A stretch of 64,000 nucleotides of DNA from Enterobacter phage CC31: sequence record NC_014662.1. One strand, written 5' to 3'. A program made the position numbers and the translations under genes. Under the pieces are notes generated by a model that saw only the letters and a program-made list of their open reading frames with translations, was not told where the DNA came from and made no database searches. Below, piece after piece: positions 1 to 6,837 of this stretch; the first letter of the stretch is position 1; each line of letters opens with the position of its first letter.

Positions 1-2214
1 TTACTCATCTTCATCTTTACCTTTTAAGGAAGGAGCGCTTTCCAGCGCTCTCATAATACGGGAAATATCATCAGCATAATTAGCTACACGCCATTCGTTT
101 AGCATATGCTCGATGACAGGATATTCTTTCTCAAACTTTTTGAATGCAGCATCTACTTCAGCTGAAGCAGCATCCGTGAGTTTATTATAAATCCGAACAC
201 ATAAAGCTAAATCTTCACGAATCTGTGAAGAACCATCAGGACTTGCCGTGATATAAGTGTTCTTCAGATTGCGTCCGATTTCATTGATACGAGATACTCG
301 CTCACCGTTATCTTTGCCAGTAATGAACTTCAGAAGCCACTTTAACTCAGGAGTATTGATGATGTTACTTACAACACGGCGGTTAAAGAATGTTGATGGC
401 AAATATTCATCAGCATCCAGGTCGTCAATAATCTTGATGAATTCATCAACAATGAAACGGTCCAACGATTCAAGATTATCATTCAATTTAGCAACCTTGG
501 CTGAGTTTGGACGAATAACGTAGAACTCAGTTACGCCCAGTTCTTTAGCCAAAGTTCTGATAGTTTCAATATCAATTCCAGACCAGTACAGCTCTTCAGG
601 GAACGTACGAATCTCATCGCGTGAACGGAAAATTGCATAACCTTCAAGTTCCGCAATATCGTCCTTGTTCATAAATAAGTCTTCAGAAGTCCACCAACCA
701 CCTTTAGCATCTAACTTATGCAATTGGCCGTTCGGAGATTTTGGACGTGGTCCACCATCACCTTTAGATGAGTTTGAGTAATGCTCTTTTTCAAACTTAC
801 GGTATTCTTCCATCTCAGAAGACTTCAGAACAACAACTTCATCTTGGTCAAACAGTTTGATAATTTCATCTTTAATTTCAAGATGTTTAGGGTCTTCTGG
901 GTCAATCATGATAAAACGCTGATATCGGTGGAAGTCTTTCAAATACATTCCACGGAACATTGCTGCGCGGCGAGATGGCTTGTCATCAATCATGATATGA
1001 ACTTTATTCTGCTGAACATTAAGCAGATTTGAAACTGAAGTACGCTTTCTCGTTGACCAAGAACTCGTAAGACGCATACGCTCAGCATCCAGGTTCACAA
1101 GATAAGTGTAAACCATTGAAGACTCAATTTTCTTCTGAAGTTCATTGATGTTATAAGTTTCAACCCATTCGCCATAAGTCTTATCACCAAACATGATGTT
1201 CTGGCGATTCAGAATAGCACGTTGGTTTGAATCAAATTGAGACAGCTGACGAACTAGCTCACGCTTATTCTCAATAGACTGAAGATGTGCAATATCAGCT
1301 TCAAGAGTAGCTTTTTCTAAGCTGTTAACACGTTTCTTGATGTTCTCAATTGTAACATCGTCCAGTGAAAGTTCTTCACGAGATGGAGTGATATCCAATT
1401 CACCCAGAGGGAAATTGACGTAAACACATCCATAACGATTCAGAAGCCAAGAACATTCAAGACCCTGGAATTGGTCAATCGGATAAACAATCTTACCGTA
1501 AACCGCATACAGACCACGAGAATCTTTTCCAAATCCATTAGGAGAATGGAACCACTCTACATCTTGTGGGAAAGAGTCAATGTTAATGCTTGCGCCAGTA
1601 ATGATTGGTTTAACTGGCATTGGACGCATTACATAAGCAATTTCATGCGCAAATTTTTCTACATCTTCAAGACGAACAGGAACCGTAATTTCAATACCAG
1701 TCTGCTCACCTTCTTTCATTGGCTCAACAAACAGAGGACGAATATCAGGTTCACCATTGTTCATCACAGCCATGTAACCACGAGCTTCACCGTCATGATA
1801 AGAAACAATAGTGAAGGACTTAGTGTAGCTGAACGGAGATTTTGAACCAAGACCCAGAGCACCGATGAAATCGTTACTTTCAGCTTTTGTCGAAGCAAAG
1901 TAGCTATTGTACAGACCGGGTTCTTCGTCATTACCACGAATCTGGAAATCACTCATACCAGGACCAAAGTCACGAATAATGAAACGCGGGTCTAACTTAT
2001 TCGGACACTTGATTTCGCATGGAACATCTTGCTTTCCGTTCAGAATGTGAGCATCAAGCCAGTTAGTTGTAAGCTCACGAACAACAGCACGGATTTTGTT
2101 CTTATAGAGCTTATCAGACAAAATCATAAAGGCCTTGGGAGAGGCCTGAATGGTGAACTTAGTTTTCTTACCAGCAGAACCTAAAACTTCTTCATTATCA
2201 GCAATTAATTTCAT
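1..2214 (-). CDS. rIIA: rIIA protein (GHKL-type ATPase-like, membrane-associated)
   Basis: 737-aa ORF; N-terminus matches recalled T4 rIIA motifs (KIRAVVRELxxN, DFGPGMSDF, NSYFxSxKAESNDFIG, GLGSKSPF); ATG at 2212-2214, stop at window edge 1-3. Confidence 0.9.
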   Translation of the reverse strand: MKLIADNEEVLGSAGKKTKFTIQASPKAFMILSDKLYKNKIRAVVRELTTNWLDAHILNGKQDVPCEIKCPNKLDPRFIIRDFGPGMSDFQIRGNDEEPGLYNSYFASTKAESNDFIGALGLGSKSPFSYTKSFTIVSYHDGEARGYMAVMNNGEPDIRPLFVEPMKEGEQTGIEITVPVRLEDVEKFAHEIAYVMRPMPVKPIITGASINIDSFPQDVEWFHSPNGFGKDSRGLYAVYGKIVYPIDQFQGLECSWLLNRYGCVYVNFPLGELDITPSREELSLDDVTIENIKKRVNSLEKATLEADIAHLQSIENKRELVRQLSQFDSNQRAILNRQNIMFGDKTYGEWVETYNINELQKKIESSMVYTYLVNLDAERMRLTSSWSTRKRTSVSNLLNVQQNKVHIMIDDKPSRRAAMFRGMYLKDFHRYQRFIMIDPEDPKHLEIKDEIIKLFDQDEVVVLKSSEMEEYRKFEKEHYSNSSKGDGGPRPKSPNGQLHKLDAKGGWWTSEDLFMNKDDIAELEGYAIFRSRDEIRTFPEELYWSGIDIETIRTLAKELGVTEFYVIRPNSAKVAKLNDNLESLDRFIVDEFIKIIDDLDADEYLPSTFFNRRVVSNIINTPELKWLLKFITGKDNGERVSRINEIGRNLKNTYITASPDGSSQIREDLALCVRIYNKLTDAASAEVDAAFKKFEKEYPVIEHMLNEWRVANYADDISRIMRALESAPSLKGKDEDE

Positions 2215-2219
2215 ATCTC

Positions 2220-2426
2220 TCAGTCACAGTGTCGTTTTATAAGTTCAGCTACTTCAAGGAGTTCTTCCGCAGTAGCCGTATCGGTAGTAAAAATTTTATT
2301 ACGAATTTCTTTAAAGCGCTCTTTGAATTCTTCAGCCTCTCCGATGTCAAAGAAGCGTTGGATGATACGATACTCTTTGTAAACAGCATCGTCGAACAGT
2401 TCAGCAGAAGGTTTTAAAGTTAACAT
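2220..2426 (-). CDS. hypothetical protein at rIIA.1 position
   Basis: 68-aa charged ORF immediately upstream of rIIA, same strand. Confidence 0.55.
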   Translation of the reverse strand: MLTLKPSAELFDDAVYKEYRIIQRFFDIGEAEEFKERFKEIRNKIFTTDTATAEELLEVAELIKRHCD

Positions 2427-2704
2427 TTGATAGTTCCTATTGAGTTAAGGATTTTCGCCATTTGTTTTATTGTATACTTTTCTCGGCGATTGTAAACCAC
2501 CTTCAACGCGAACGTACGAAGGTTCATAGGAATGGTCTGGCGAGTTTCAATACAGTTGACAATATAATCTATTGCCTGTTTGAATTTAATGTGATAGGGG
2601 TCATCTGGCGAACCTCCATGCTCAGTGAGATGCCGTTCTCCGTTCTGTTTGATACATTCTGCCACGTTTTCAAGATTTACCAAAGTTCCATCATCAAGAA
2701 TCAT
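2420..2704 (-). CDS. hypothetical protein
   Basis: 94-aa ORF, minus strand, overlaps next gene by 7 nt. Confidence 0.5.
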   Translation of the reverse strand: MILDDGTLVNLENVAECIKQNGERHLTEHGGSPDDPYHIKFKQAIDYIVNCIETRQTIPMNLRTFALKVVYNRREKYTIKQMAKILNSIGTIKC

Positions 2705-2716
2705 CTGTTCACCTCA

Positions 2717-2743
2717 TAAAAATGGGACTCCCGAAGGAGTCCC
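2717..2743 (-). terminator. intrinsic terminator (GGGACTCC-UUCG-GGAGUCCC + U-run on minus strand)
   Basis: perfect 8-bp stem with 4-nt loop at 2724..2743, preceded on plus strand by an A-run (U-tail on minus transcript). Confidence 0.7.
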
Positions 2744-2749
2744 TAAGCA

Positions 2750-2905
2750 TTACCACGAAGCACGAGAAACAATGCCTGTGACTTTAGTATAAGAGCCGTT
2801 GGTATGTCTTACACGGATAGTGACAGTATCACCAGGGAGAGGCAGAGCATCTCCCCACATGTAGCCGTAACTTCCATCTACTAATGTTACCCAAATCTGC
2901 GACAT
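2750..2905 (-). CDS. small hypothetical protein (51 aa)
   Basis: ATG at 2903-2905 preceded by AGGAG; ends just before terminator hairpin; not in ORF track because under 60 aa. Confidence 0.35.
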   Translation of the reverse strand: MSQIWVTLVDGSYGYMWGDALPLPGDTVTIRVRHTNGSYTKVTGIVSRASW

Positions 2906-2944
2906 AATAGCTCCTTATTGTACCGGGCAAGACGCCCGATATAT

Positions 2945-4819
2945 TTATTCGCTCATCCACACTTTACGTGGAGCAGCGTCATCACCCATAACCATTTCGA
3001 AGAGTTCTTTCCAGTTTTCAGGAAGAGAAACTACATCATAATGAGGTTCTTGGATTACTCGCTCATATTCATCTTCTTCCAAAGAACCCAGTCCTTTGAT
3101 GTAACGAAGTTTCCAACCAGCAAGTTCATCTTTTTCCGCTTCATATTCAGCGGCGGTGTAATACCACTTCTGTTTGTCTCCTTTACTCATAATGATAACA
3201 GGAGTTTTGACGAAGCGAATTCGGCCTTCTTCAAACAGACGAGGCCAATTACTGAAGAATGCCAGAAGACTTGGATAGATTGAACCTGTTCCGTCAACAT
3301 CCGCATCTGTCATGATAGCGATGTTTTTGTAGTTCAGATTTTCATAATCTTCACCAATAGTCAATCCAGTGATTGCGCAGATGTCGAAGACCTCTTTGTT
3401 CTTCATTGCTTCTGCTGCGGTCATTCCCCACGTATTCAGGAACTTACCGCGAAGTGGATAACCACCATGAAGTTTACGGTCACGAGTAGTCAGAAGATAA
3501 CCAATTGCAGAATCACCTTCTGTTAAGAACAGAGTGGTTTCTTCTTTATCATTACCATAAAGTTCTGGCTTAATATGTTTAGCAACCTTAGCTTTTGAAG
3601 CAGCTTTTGCAGCTTTAGTTTCAGCAGCTTTTTCTGCCGCCAATTTACGAGCCAGCATAGCTTCAATAATTGGCATATGAATTGCTTCGGACTTCATAAC
3701 TTGTTGAGCAAGTTTTTTGTAGTCCAAGTTCAAATGAGCTTTAACTTCACCCCATGGAGATGTCAGACGTTCTTTAGTCTGAGAATCAAATCGCATGTTG
3801 CTCATATCACGAACGAACATCACGAAAGTAAAACACTCTTTGATACGAGCCTTGTTTACTTCCAGTTTGTACTTACGTTTGAGCATTGGGATGAGTTCAT
3901 TTGACAATTCGTCAACAACCAAATCCACATGAGAACCACCCTTAGAAGTATGGATGTTGTTCACATAAGTCAGTTGGCGGAAACCATCATCTGAACGACC
4001 AATTGCAATTGAACAATTATCTTCATCAGCTACAATAGCTTCTTCATCAAATTGCTTAGCGAATTTCTTGAATCCGCCATTGACTTTTTTGCCTTGGAAT
4101 TTGAATTCAATATCCGGGAATACTACCGCCAGAGTTTGAAGACGGTCCAAAACAATTGATTCATCTACTTCTGTAAGTCCTGAACTTTCAAAGTGACTGA
4201 AGTCAGGAATGAACGATACTCGAGTTCCGGTCTTGGTTTGAATGAACTCTTTTTCCTTTGCTGGCTTACTATCCCAAGAGATATTCTCAGCCCCATTAGA
4301 GCATCGGACGATAATTTCATTCTGGCCGTCACAAGTAGCTCCTGCAAAAGTCACAGAGAAAATATTAGTCAATGCAGAACCAACACCGTTCATACCACCA
4401 GTTTTACGTTCAGCATCATCACCAAAGTTACCACCAGCGCGTGGACGAGTCCAAGCAGCTACTGGTCCAGGAATTTCATCTCCTTCAGGAGTAACTACTG
4501 GAGCTTGTGGAAGACCACGACCATTATCTGTTACGATAACTTTATTGCCTTTAAGCTCAACAGAAATTTTATTTGCAAACTTGAAGTTGGTACGAATTGC
4601 TTCATCGACTGAGTTATCAATGATTTCGTCAATCAGCTTGATTACACCCGGAACGTAAGTTACACTTTGGAATTTACCAAACAGAAAACGTTCGTGAGCT
4701 TCCATAGCTGAAGAGCCGATGTACATACCAGAGCGCTTAATGATATGCTCTCGGTCTGACAGAATTTTAATTTCGTTCTTAATCATCATTTGTCCTCGTT
4801 TAGGTGAACATTCTATCAA
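2945..4819 (-). CDS. 39: DNA topoisomerase II large subunit (GyrB-like ATPase; gp39/gp60-type fused form)
   Basis: 624 aa; N-terminus MIKNEIKILSD...RSGMYIGS and motifs DNGRGLP, GGMNGVGS, EGDSAIGY, IMTDADVDG match recalled T4 gp39 and continue through the gp60-equivalent C-terminus without interruption. Confidence 0.92.
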   Translation of the reverse strand: MIECSPKRGQMMIKNEIKILSDREHIIKRSGMYIGSSAMEAHERFLFGKFQSVTYVPGVIKLIDEIIDNSVDEAIRTNFKFANKISVELKGNKVIVTDNGRGLPQAPVVTPEGDEIPGPVAAWTRPRAGGNFGDDAERKTGGMNGVGSALTNIFSVTFAGATCDGQNEIIVRCSNGAENISWDSKPAKEKEFIQTKTGTRVSFIPDFSHFESSGLTEVDESIVLDRLQTLAVVFPDIEFKFQGKKVNGGFKKFAKQFDEEAIVADEDNCSIAIGRSDDGFRQLTYVNNIHTSKGGSHVDLVVDELSNELIPMLKRKYKLEVNKARIKECFTFVMFVRDMSNMRFDSQTKERLTSPWGEVKAHLNLDYKKLAQQVMKSEAIHMPIIEAMLARKLAAEKAAETKAAKAASKAKVAKHIKPELYGNDKEETTLFLTEGDSAIGYLLTTRDRKLHGGYPLRGKFLNTWGMTAAEAMKNKEVFDICAITGLTIGEDYENLNYKNIAIMTDADVDGTGSIYPSLLAFFSNWPRLFEEGRIRFVKTPVIIMSKGDKQKWYYTAAEYEAEKDELAGWKLRYIKGLGSLEEDEYERVIQEPHYDVVSLPENWKELFEMVMGDDAAPRKVWMSE

Positions 4820-4834
4820 CAGATTCTTAAAGCA

Positions 4835-5221
4835 TTATATCTGCGACAATTTTTCTTCAAGTTCAGCTTTATACTGCAGTAAATGGGTTTTAGCTTCTTC
4901 ACCGAAAATAGGATTATAACTTGGATTGTATGCAGCCCAGCGGGCAGAACTGTAAACCTTTTTATAGAACTTATGGCGCACTTCACGAGAATTCGTATAT
5001 GCGTATATATCAATACCATAATATGCTTCGCACTCATAGCTTCCATCTTCATTTTGATGAACATGCTCATGACGAATCTCATAATACTTTTCAAGCCAAA
5101 TATAGCTTCCATCGACTATACGGGTAGGCCATAAAGCAAACTTCCAGCGCCCAAGTGCACTGTTCACAATTTTGAGTTGCTTGAGCAAATTTTTATGCTC
5201 TACTGTTAATCCAAATCTCAT
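4835..5221 (-). CDS. hypothetical protein
   Basis: ATG at 5219-5221 with GGAGA RBS; the longer track ORF (to 5302) reads through the terminator hairpin and is rejected. Confidence 0.55.
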   Translation of the reverse strand: MRFGLTVEHKNLLKQLKIVNSALGRWKFALWPTRIVDGSYIWLEKYYEIRHEHVHQNEDGSYECEAYYGIDIYAYTNSREVRHKFYKKVYSSARWAAYNPSYNPIFGEEAKTHLLQYKAELEEKLSQI

Positions 5222-5246
5222 AATGTTCTCCTCTTTTGGTAGAGCT

Positions 5247-5276
5247 ATTTTATCATACTTTGTAGAGAAAGTAAAC
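5247..5276 (-). promoter_or_regulatory. putative T4-type early promoter (GTTTAC -35, A/T-rich -10)
   Basis: minus strand GTTTAC (plus 5271-5276) about 18 nt upstream of TAAAAT, then RBS and ATG at 5221. Confidence 0.35.
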
Positions 5277-5280
5277 AACA

Positions 5281-5298
5281 AAGGGCCCGAAGGCCCTT
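5281..5298 (-). terminator. intrinsic terminator hairpin AAGGGCC-UUCG-GGCCCUU
   Basis: perfect 7-bp stem plus tetraloop directly after stop of the 5302..6837 gene; same 18-mer recurs at 34240 and nearly at 28043. Confidence 0.7.
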
Positions 5299-5301
5299 TC
5301 A

Positions 5302-6837
5302 TTATACTTTACCTTGCAGAACGTTAGTGAACTGCGAACCACGCCAGAAGTAACCTTGGTCATTCGGATGGACGTTATCATTTGAGGTGTACAGATTTGC
5401 GTTCTCTGCAGTAACCCAACCTTTAACATCTACGAACTCTAAGTTCAACTCAGTAGTAAGTTCAATCAGTGCATCACGAACTGCCGCGATTTGGTCAGTC
5501 ATTCCAAGAGGAGTTGCCGGTCCAAACACGATAATTTTAGCTGCAGGTTGATATTGCTTAATCAGAGCAATTGACTCTCTGAAGTTAGTTTTAAGCAAAT
5601 CAATTCTACCAGCCGGAGCATCGTTATAGCCTAAAGCTAAAGTGATGATATCCGGAGTGAAACTCAGAGTTGCAAGCTTAGCCGTGATACGAGCTTGAGG
5701 CTGAGTTGAGCTTGTTGAAGTCCAACCAGAACCACCGATGCCATCAGCTAATCCGACTAAACCAAGCTTATCACAATAGAAACGGAAATCGTTGAACGAT
5801 GCTTGAGTTGCCATTGTACCGAAGGTGTAAGAGTCACCAAGCTGCCAAATCATCTTAGCTGGACGAGTAATTGCAGTGATAGTTTTTCCAGTGTCTACAT
5901 AAATTCCGCCAAAGGCAGTATTCACGCCAACAAGAGAATATTCACGCATTTGCTCAACACCGTTCCAATCTATGCTATAGATGTAAACTGCACCAGACGA
6001 ATCAGTAGTGACTGAAGTTGCAGAAATACGTTGTCCATCTACATAAAGGTCATACTTGGAGTTATTCCCGGCGAGTTTGAAATCAATTTTGCTTGAATCA
6101 GTTTTGAAATTAACTCGACATTGAGTTCCGTTGCCAGTACCATTTCCTCTGAAACCAGAAACAGCGTCCTTGATGTCAGAACCCCAATAAGTGATTTTAG
6201 CATCAGTACGAGCAATTGTTACGCCAGCATAAATTGTTGAAGCTACACCAGCGTTGGTCGTTACAGTGAATTTAGCGCCTGTACCAGTACCACCTGTTGC
6301 TGAAATTTCACCAGTAGGAGCAGTTGCATATACACCAGGTTTACGAACTTGAGTAGTCGTAATTTCGCCATTACTACCAACAGCCGTTACACGGATTTGT
6401 CCATTAACATCACCAGTGGCTCCAGGAATATCCAAAATATCACCGAATGTATATCCAGTGCCACCTGAAACTAAAGTAGCATTTCCAGAAATACCTACGC
6501 CCTTAATAAGCTTTTGCGTTGGTGGATTTGACATTACTGCAACTGGTTGAAGCATTGGCCCTAATGGTGGTTGAGGGTCTGGACCATCTACTGTATATTC
6601 GCTTAAAGTATATTGATATCCATTTCTAGACTCAATGAAATTAACTTCACCGTAGTCTACATAAGCTTGTTTGAGAGTATCAATTTGAAGTGCATATTGA
6701 GGGTCAGCGTATTCACGCCAGTCTTTACCTTCTTCCTTGGCTTTAATAAGGATGTTGTGAATCCACCAAGGAAGGTAAAGGAAGCTTGTGTTACGCCACG
6801 GAATAGGATGTACCGTGGTCCAAATATCTGTAGCCAT
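5302..6837 (-). CDS. SGNH/GDSL-family hydrolase (esterase) with Gly/Thr-rich beta-type N-terminal domain
   Basis: 511 aa; C-terminal GDSYTFG (catalytic Ser block), LALGYNDA, DNVHPNDQGY (Asp-x-x-His block); N-terminal half rich in G/T/S repeats; strong AAGGAGA RBS before ATG at 6837. Confidence 0.7.
   Translation of the reverse strand: MATDIWTTVHPIPWRNTSFLYLPWWIHNILIKAKEEGKDWREYADPQYALQIDTLKQAYVDYGEVNFIESRNGYQYTLSEYTVDGPDPQPPLGPMLQPVAVMSNPPTQKLIKGVGISGNATLVSGGTGYTFGDILDIPGATGDVNGQIRVTAVGSNGEITTTQVRKPGVYATAPTGEISATGGTGTGAKFTVTTNAGVASTIYAGVTIARTDAKITYWGSDIKDAVSGFRGNGTGNGTQCRVNFKTDSSKIDFKLAGNNSKYDLYVDGQRISATSVTTDSSGAVYIYSIDWNGVEQMREYSLVGVNTAFGGIYVDTGKTITAITRPAKMIWQLGDSYTFGTMATQASFNDFRFYCDKLGLVGLADGIGGSGWTSTSSTQPQARITAKLATLSFTPDIITLALGYNDAPAGRIDLLKTNFRESIALIKQYQPAAKIIVFGPATPLGMTDQIAAVRDALIELTTELNLEFVDVKGWVTAENANLYTSNDNVHPNDQGYFWRGSQFTNVLQGKV

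Follow-up and report, generated by a model that had tools for sequence, protein, structure and literature searches.

Gene 39 of a Karamvirus encodes an unsplit topoisomerase II large subunit and exemplifies an empty MobA target site

For bacteriophage T4, insertion of mobA has been described as having split the large-subunit gene of the phage topoisomerase, by comparison with related phages (Edgell et al. 2010, PMC2988022), and subsequent analyses described the MobA element as a 1.1-kb sequence that adds a C-terminal extension (CTE) to the first of the two resulting open reading frames (ORF1) as well as an extension at the N terminus (NTE), together with a bypass cassette, to the second (ORF2; bioRxiv 10.1101/2022.08.31.505936). 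In T4, the element corresponds to the C-terminal extension of gp39, mobA, the N-terminal extension of gp60 and a coding gap of 50 nucleotides (nt), and the same investigators noted that it had been inserted independently in several clades (Manning & Atkins, bioRxiv 10.1101/2022.08.31.505936). Each of those clades was found to have partner genomes, 96-99% identical, that are without the element (bioRxiv 10.1101/2022.08.31.505936), and the unsplit gene has been treated as the parental state, with that of T4 as derived (PMC2988022; bioRxiv 10.1101/2022.08.31.505936). The two-subunit enzyme of phage T6 was found to have activity, and its structure was solved, with activity being demonstrated for the enzymes of both T6 and T4 (PMC11461880). 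Here we describe the corresponding gene, gene 39, in a stretch of 64,000 nucleotides of Enterobacter phage CC31 (sequence record NC_014662.1; hereafter ‘the window’), which covers the initial 64 kb of the genome of a Karamvirus belonging to the Enterobacter phage PG7 group. The analysis leaves very little doubt that gene 39 of this Karamvirus encodes an intact GyrB-like large subunit that is translated collinearly and without bypass, and that it represents the ancestral and majority state of the gene rather than a fusion.

The gene lies within an uninterrupted ORF on the minus strand (2945..4819; all of the genes, domains and signals for which window coordinates are given below are on that strand), for which the ORF listing and its translation gave 624 residues, counted from a TTG codon, and no internal stop. 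When the sequences of T4 gp39 and gp60 (taken from NC_000866, the latter with its annotated 50-nt gap removed) were compared with the translated frame using BLASTP, residues 1-471 of gp39 matched residues 12-490 of the ORF (70% identity, E = 0), and residues 30-160 of gp60 matched residues 494-624 (71% identity, E = 6e-66). A single gene therefore covers the equivalents of both T4 proteins, with matches that lie three residues apart (DYE, the T6 counterpart of which is KAE). In the T4 proteins, the 45 C-terminal residues of gp39 and the 29 N-terminal residues of gp60 remained unaligned, and these are the ends that correspond to the CTE and NTE of the inserted MobA element (Manning & Atkins, bioRxiv 10.1101/2022.08.31.505936). 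The best match among proteins of solved structure was T6 gp39 (PDB 8ylu_C), which aligned over residues 1-605 with residues 1-613 of the 613-residue product (E = 1.9e-296), the difference in length being accounted for by two insertions, of seven residues and of one residue, neither of them near the split site. Ranked second was an artificially fused construct of T4 gp39 and gp60, which needed two matched stretches. The frame is a real gene and is far from a chance ORF.

The position at which the T4 gene is split was then compared codon by codon. In the T4 take-off region the codons are GAC GCA GAT CAC GAT GGA, followed by TAG and the remainder of a 50-nt gap that ends with a second GGA, and then by TTA GGT TCT (DADHDG, the gap, and LGSIY). 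In the window counterpart (3352..3290) the codons GAT GCG GAT GTT GAC GGA ACA GGT TCA ATC TAT (DADVDGTGSIY) are read straight through, and across the T4 split site the window matches T6 gene 39 codon for codon. The comparison with T6 and T4 thus identifies 3290..3352 as an empty MobA site, in which the peptide E-D-Y-E-N-L-N-Y-K-N-I-A-I-M-T-D-A-D-V-D-G is continuous. No split of the large subunit (Topo2L) within its Toprim domain was found in the window gene, where one frame crosses the site, and the codon view of the site revealed no non-coding gap of approximately 50 nt with a stop and a landing codon after the take-off GGA. Searches of the whole window with the DNA of the T4 cassette (T4 2790..3920, blastn-short) returned only chance 13- to 14-mers (E >= 0.22), and searches of the same sequence with the CTE peptide of gp39 and the NTE peptide of gp60 (tblastn) returned only matches with E >= 0.11, all at unrelated positions. 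Neither mobA nor a remnant of an HNH endonuclease was found between the two halves, and the gene leaves no room there for an inserted ORF. An earlier reading of the same DNA, made from its letters alone (the sequence-only reading), had proposed that one gene spans the equivalents of gp39 and gp60 without the split, the 50-nt bypass or mobA; these observations bear that proposal out, and the alignment to T4 gp39 and gp60 that it had put forward as a check revealed neither a frameshift nor a gap. Lacking the MobA element, gene 39 needs no translational bypass, nor does this lineage need any translational recoding for its topoisomerase. Either the MobA homing-endonuclease element never invaded the gene or no trace of it is left there, and the gene serves, in Karamvirus, as an example of an empty target site for that element.

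The identity of the product was further established by its domains and motifs. The complete gene (2945..4786, comprising 613 codons and the stop, TAA, at the 2945 end) encodes a GyrB-like large subunit of a phage type IIA topoisomerase, as indicated by its matches to T6 gp39, to T4 gp39 and gp60, to the protein of phage vB_EclM-UFV01 and, among the PHROGs families, to phrog_543 (‘DNA topoisomerase II large subunit’, E = 4e-280, residues 1-613). The order of its Pfam domains (HATPase_c, DNA_gyraseB, Toprim and TOPRIM_C) is that expected for the B subunit of a type IIA topoisomerase. The GHKL ATPase core (4205..4639; HATPase_c, PF02518, E = 8.4e-07) contains the N-box EIIDNSVDE and the motifs DNGRG and GGMNGVG, and the transducer domain (3614..3991; DNA_gyraseB, PF00204, E = 3e-14) contains the QTK loop, SQTKE. 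An uninterrupted Toprim domain (3212..3535; PF01751, E = 0.0013), also identified by alignment with T6, harbors the glutamate of EGDSA and the acidic cluster DADVDG, and is followed by a C-terminal TOPRIM_C domain (2951..3208; PF16898, E = 1.8e-05), the counterpart of the C-terminal portion of T4 gp60 (71% identity). The catalytic motifs of a type IIA B subunit, which comprise the Glu and Asn of the GHKL N-box, the glycines of the ATP lid, the QTK loop, the Toprim Glu and the DxDxD cluster, are therefore all present: EIIDNSVDE (54), DNGRG (87), GGMNGVG (130), SQTKE (335), EGDSA (423) and DADVDG (494).

The distribution of the unsplit gene was subsequently assessed across a phage collection, in which 1960 records were found to contain a homologue of the window protein, 1840 of them holding at least 80% of the protein in one place (tblastn). 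The DNA of the T4 cassette (2790..3800, blastn) matched 58 records, derived from phages of Escherichia, Salmonella, Proteus, Acinetobacter and Shigella; this count represents a lower bound, since very divergent cassettes are missed at blastn sensitivity, and at that same sensitivity no Enterobacter phage was found among the 58. In an evenly spaced sample of the homologue records, three of 40 rows were matches in several pieces that flanked an endonuclease. The unsplit gene thus represents the ancestral state as well as that of the great majority of these phages; the arrangement of T4 is a rare exception, and its absence from the window is to be expected. The sequence-only reading had described the gene as ‘fused’, which is a misnomer that inverts the polarity, the unsplit gene being parental and T4 derived (PMC2988022; bioRxiv 10.1101/2022.08.31.505936). 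Its further suggestion that the gene is a useful marker of lineage also needs correction: absence of the cassette is a weak marker, because its presence varies from one near-identical genome to another (those of 96-99% identity) and because the unsplit state is shared by the large majority (1960 versus 58 records). The view of an unsplit gene 39 as a distinctive fusion is thereby corrected: it is the parental state, and the split-and-bypass arrangement of T4 arose from it when a mobile element invaded the gene.

Close relatives of the locus are numerous. A megablast search with positions 2100..5400 identified 29 phage genomes that cover at least 80% of that region at 93-98% identity, nearly all of them members of the genus Karamvirus from Enterobacter, Klebsiella or Cronobacter, with vB_EhoP_ZX13 as the best match (97.8%). 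In the relatives (including vB_EclM-UFV01, ZX13 and myPSH1140) gene 39 is annotated as a DNA topoisomerase (II) large subunit, and the PG7 record carries the note "gp60plus39 DNA topoisomerase subunit"; in a tblastn search with the 613-residue product, 24 records reached at least 99% identity, among them vB_EclM-UFV01 at 100%. The unsplit gene 39 is thus already known and annotated in close relatives, and as regards the absence of the T4 bypass itself no novel reading survives. The value of the present analysis lies mainly in annotation: in the identity of the gene, in its true start (giving 613 residues), and in pointing to what is probably an erroneous extra base in the RefSeq entry for the type phage, PG7. 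In that record (NC_023561.1, gene at 2730-4688) an extra T is present, reading GCTGCTTCC versus GCTGC-TCC in the window at approximately window positions 2975-2985; it sits twelve codons before the stop of gene 39 and shifts the last 12 codons. The extra T is probably a sequencing error.

Two alternative histories of the continuous frame, and one alternative reading of its 5' end, were considered. The MobA element might once have split the gene and later been excised in a ‘hit-and-run’ fashion, with the frame restored and sequences of the CTE and NTE retained as relics. Such cases do exist, and are known from one Aeromonas phage clade (clade 7; Manning & Atkins, bioRxiv 10.1101/2022.08.31.505936), and the glycine codon equivalent to the take-off codon is GGA in the window, as in T4, although a single synonymous codon carries no weight. 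Against this history, the only residues between the gp39-type and gp60-type matches are DYE, which align with KAE of T6 with no insertion relative to it, and the matches of the CTE and NTE peptides and of the cassette DNA in the window are all at chance level. An insertion of approximately 70 residues resembling the CTE and NTE is absent from the Toprim domain, such that a hit-and-run history is effectively refuted and must be considered highly improbable. Still more improbable is the possibility that continuity of the frame is an artefact of assembly that masks a short non-coding gap, or an intein or intron, in the real phage. That possibility was raised because the related PG7 record contains what is probably a single-base error, and no support for it was found; the same continuous 3.3-kb region is present in 29 independently sequenced relatives, 24 records encode a protein that is at least 99% identical, and each residue of the product finds its place in an alignment with T6 gp39, the structure of which has been solved.

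The remaining alternative concerns where that continuous gene begins. The coding-strand sequence upstream of gene 39 reads ...CAGATATAATGCTTTAAGAATCTGTTGATAGAATGTTCACCTAAACGAGGACAAATGATGATTAAG, and a common sequence, AAACGAGGAyAArTGATGATTAAG, is found at the start of the gene in the window, T4, T6 and PG7. T4 and T6 read GTG ATG at this point, their annotated start being the ATG, which is the second of the two codons (MIKNEIK). In the window, a Shine-Dalgarno sequence, GAGGA (4797..4793), lies 3 nt before an ATG at 4789 and 6 nt before an ATG at 4786; judged from these features and the homologues, the true start is almost certainly ATG 4786, giving 613 residues, or possibly ATG 4789, giving 614. 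The middle promoters of T4 that depend on MotA consist of a Mot box, a spacer of 11-13 nt, and TAnnnT. A putative promoter of this type, identified by agreement with the T4 consensus, is present at 4810..4834 (Mot box TGCTTTA at 4834..4828, a spacer of 12 nt, and TAGAAT at 4815..4810), and PG7 (TGCTTTA-12-TAGAAT), as well as T4 and T6 (AGCTTTA-12-TATAAT), display the same layout ahead of their gene 39. As motA is encoded in PG7, according to its annotation, a middle promoter of the MotA type is probably located directly upstream of gene 39. The protein might instead begin at TTG 4819, with an N-terminal extension of 10-11 residues, LIECSPKRGQ(M), and a length of 624 residues, given that the frame is open from 4819 and that TTG is a permitted start codon. 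However, no Shine-Dalgarno sequence precedes that TTG, which overlaps the conserved -10 element (TAGAAT) of the promoter-like site; the homologous upstream sequences of T4 and T6 encode no extension; and the homologues and their annotations all begin at MIKNE. On account of the ribosome-binding site, the promoter overlap and the starts of the homologues, TTG 4819 was rejected as the start, and a 624-residue protein is very unlikely. The upstream part of the mechanically defined ORF (4787..4819), for which no homologue has an equivalent extension and in which the TTG overlaps TAGAAT, is most likely untranslated leader and promoter. Of the length given in the sequence-only reading, 624 residues, the openness of the frame from TTG 4819 was thus upheld, but the product itself is shorter (613 residues, possibly 614), because the TTG falls inside the putative promoter.

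Several observations qualify the reading of gene 39 as an unsplit topoisomerase large subunit with the boundaries given above. Two of its domains score below the Pfam gathering thresholds (Toprim at 19.3 versus 23.1 bits, and TOPRIM_C at 25.4 versus 29), such that domain identity in that part of the protein rests on full-length homology to T6 gp39 and, for Toprim, on the motifs as well. The annotated PG7 product is 652 residues long, with an unrelated C-terminus, and overruns the start of an adjacent 51-residue ORF; this is because of the single extra T in the PG7 record, and not because of anything in the window. As to the start, sequence alone favours neither ATG 4786 nor ATG 4789 decisively. 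Finally, a homologue of the small subunit gp52, for which the PG7 protein was used as the query, was not found in the 64-kb window, and the partner is inferred from relatives: gp52 of PG7 is encoded at 168713..170092, at the far end of the genome, on its rIIB side as in T4, and outside the span of the window. None of these observations weighs substantively against the reading.

By homology to the T6 enzyme, the window protein would contribute the ATPase gate and, with its Toprim domain, the half of the cleavage site that binds metal (PMC11461880). Pairing with a GyrA-like gp52 would then be predicted, from the same homology and from the relatives, to generate a heterotetramer of the two-subunit type, which would consume ATP in relaxing DNA while the phage replicates. 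The T-even topoisomerase relaxes rather than supercoils DNA. By homology to T4 and T6 the window enzyme is likewise expected to relax DNA rather than to supercoil it.

The closest of the well-described counterparts is the product of gene 39 in T6 and T2 (PDB 8ylu, 8yo1), with which the window protein shares a single polypeptide, the same order of domains, collinearity from end to end and all of the catalytic motifs; in T6, the gene is similarly positioned between rIIA.1 and upstream early genes. The two proteins differ in that they are approximately 70% identical, and in that the window protein carries an insertion, EFIQTKT, in its ATPase domain and one extra residue near position 414. The insertion (after AKEKE) occupies residues ~185-191 of the 613-residue protein (window 4214-4234, minus strand), and is found in the window and PG7 but not in T4, T6 or phage KMB20. 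T4 gp39 and gp60 together constitute an orthologous enzyme (70% and 71% identity), and the T4 gene displays the same upstream layout of promoter and Shine-Dalgarno sequence; T4 differs in having the split, a 45-residue C-terminal extension of gp39, a 30-residue N-terminal extension of gp60, mobA/60.1, and the 50-nt gap with its take-off and landing GGA codons, none of which is present in the window. The orthologues in Karamvirus (those of PG7, UFV01, ZX13 and myPSH1140) represent the same gene, at 93-98% nucleotide identity over 3.3 kb in 29 records. More distantly, the architecture of GHKL ATPase, transducer and Toprim domains is shared with bacterial GyrB and ParE and with the N-terminal half of eukaryotic Topo II. 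Within the structure set, human Topo II-beta was matched at E = 3.7e-59 and subunit B of Topo IV at E = 6.9e-46; relative to Escherichia coli GyrB the window protein is much shorter, and its sequence scores nearer to eukaryotic Topo II than to gyrase.

Downstream of gene 39, a hairpin, CGGGC-GTCTT-GCCCG (2924..2938), is located 6 nt after the stop codon. It was flagged as terminator-like on the plus strand only in a terminator scan, is kept in PG7 apart from one mismatch in the stem, and adjoins the ribosome-binding site of the 51-residue ORF. With no run of T on the coding strand, it was rejected as the terminator of the operon; it may represent an element of messenger RNA stability or processing. 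The 51-residue ORF itself (2750..2905) is preceded by an AAGGAG ribosome-binding site, matches phrog_4369 (E = 1.4e-27) and is annotated in KMB20. It is followed by a strong intrinsic terminator (2724..2743), in which an 8-bp stem with six G-C pairs and a TTCG loop precedes ATTTTTAT; as read from 2743 to 2724 the sequence is GGGACTCCTTCGGGAGTCCC and then ATTTTTAT. Transcription would proceed from the promoter-like site (4834..4810), and from upstream of it, through the 51-residue ORF, with the operon being closed by the terminator at 2743..2724.

Beyond the terminator lie a 94-residue ORF of the DUF7367 family (2420..2704; PF24075, E = 3.2e-14; phrog_5382), a 68-residue homologue of rIIA.1 (2220..2426; Pfam T4_RIIA1, E = 1.1e-30), which is syntenic with T4 and T6, and rIIA (1..2214; 737 residues). 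The genes rIIA, rIIA.1 and 39 are all on the minus strand and in the order found in T4 and T6, the difference from T6 being that the 51-residue ORF and the DUF7367 ORF are found between gene 39 and rIIA.1 in the window, and only an intergenic gap in T6. The region downstream of gene 39 had been described in the sequence-only reading as containing small unrelated ORFs and a terminator; both the ORFs and the terminator are indeed present, but the ORFs are members of conserved families of phage proteins, not arbitrary frames, and rIIA.1 keeps the place that it has in T4.

The region upstream of gene 39 varies among relatives. In Enterobacter phage vB-EclM_KMB20 (OL828291.1) a free-standing ORF of 230 residues, resembling a GIY-YIG/NUMOD3 endonuclease, is located directly upstream of gene 39 and overlaps its start. 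Within KMB20 positions 3559-4865 (window counterpart 4158-4822), the first ~610 nt of gene 39 correspond to a divergent allele without the 7-codon insertion, and nothing else in the phage collection closely matches this 1.3-kb segment. As judged from the sequences, the arrangement resembles what homing with co-conversion would leave behind at the 5' end of gene 39. If that endonuclease does home on the 5' end of the gene, then the window would carry the cleavage-sensitive allele, and it is conceivable, albeit rather doubtful, that the window represents the uninvaded allele of a second, undescribed mobile-element target in gene 39 that is distinct from the MobA site. The closely related Enterobacter phages EnC07 (PQ096442) and EcL8g (PQ227828) match the window only as far as the start codon of gene 39 (query 1-2687 of 3301, 96%) and then diverge; the region just upstream of the gene is therefore variable within the genus, and these two phages provide a second indication, in addition to KMB20, of a hotspot of recombination or insertion at that location.

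In the window, the region upstream of gene 39 contains a mechanically defined ORF of 155 residues (4835-5302), the real start of which is probably ATG 5221, since it matches phrog_7749 from residue 28 only and relatives annotate a product of 128 residues. It is followed further upstream by the gene of a 511-residue Hoc-like head decoration protein (5302..6837), of which the N-terminal ~85 residues match Hoc families and the full length matches phrog_9703. A G+C-rich hairpin, AAAGGGCC TTCG GGCCCTTT, is located at 5299..5280, just after the stop codon of this gene. The Hoc-like gene is positioned near the upstream side of gene 39, with one small ORF between them, and is not at the position of hoc in T4. 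Its product harbors a C-terminal hydrolase domain of the SGNH/GDSL type (PF13472, E = 7.7e-18); it is unusual for a capsid decoration protein to bear an esterase domain, but this one has already been annotated in relatives such as phage Pet-CM3-4 (‘c-part SGNH hydrolase’).

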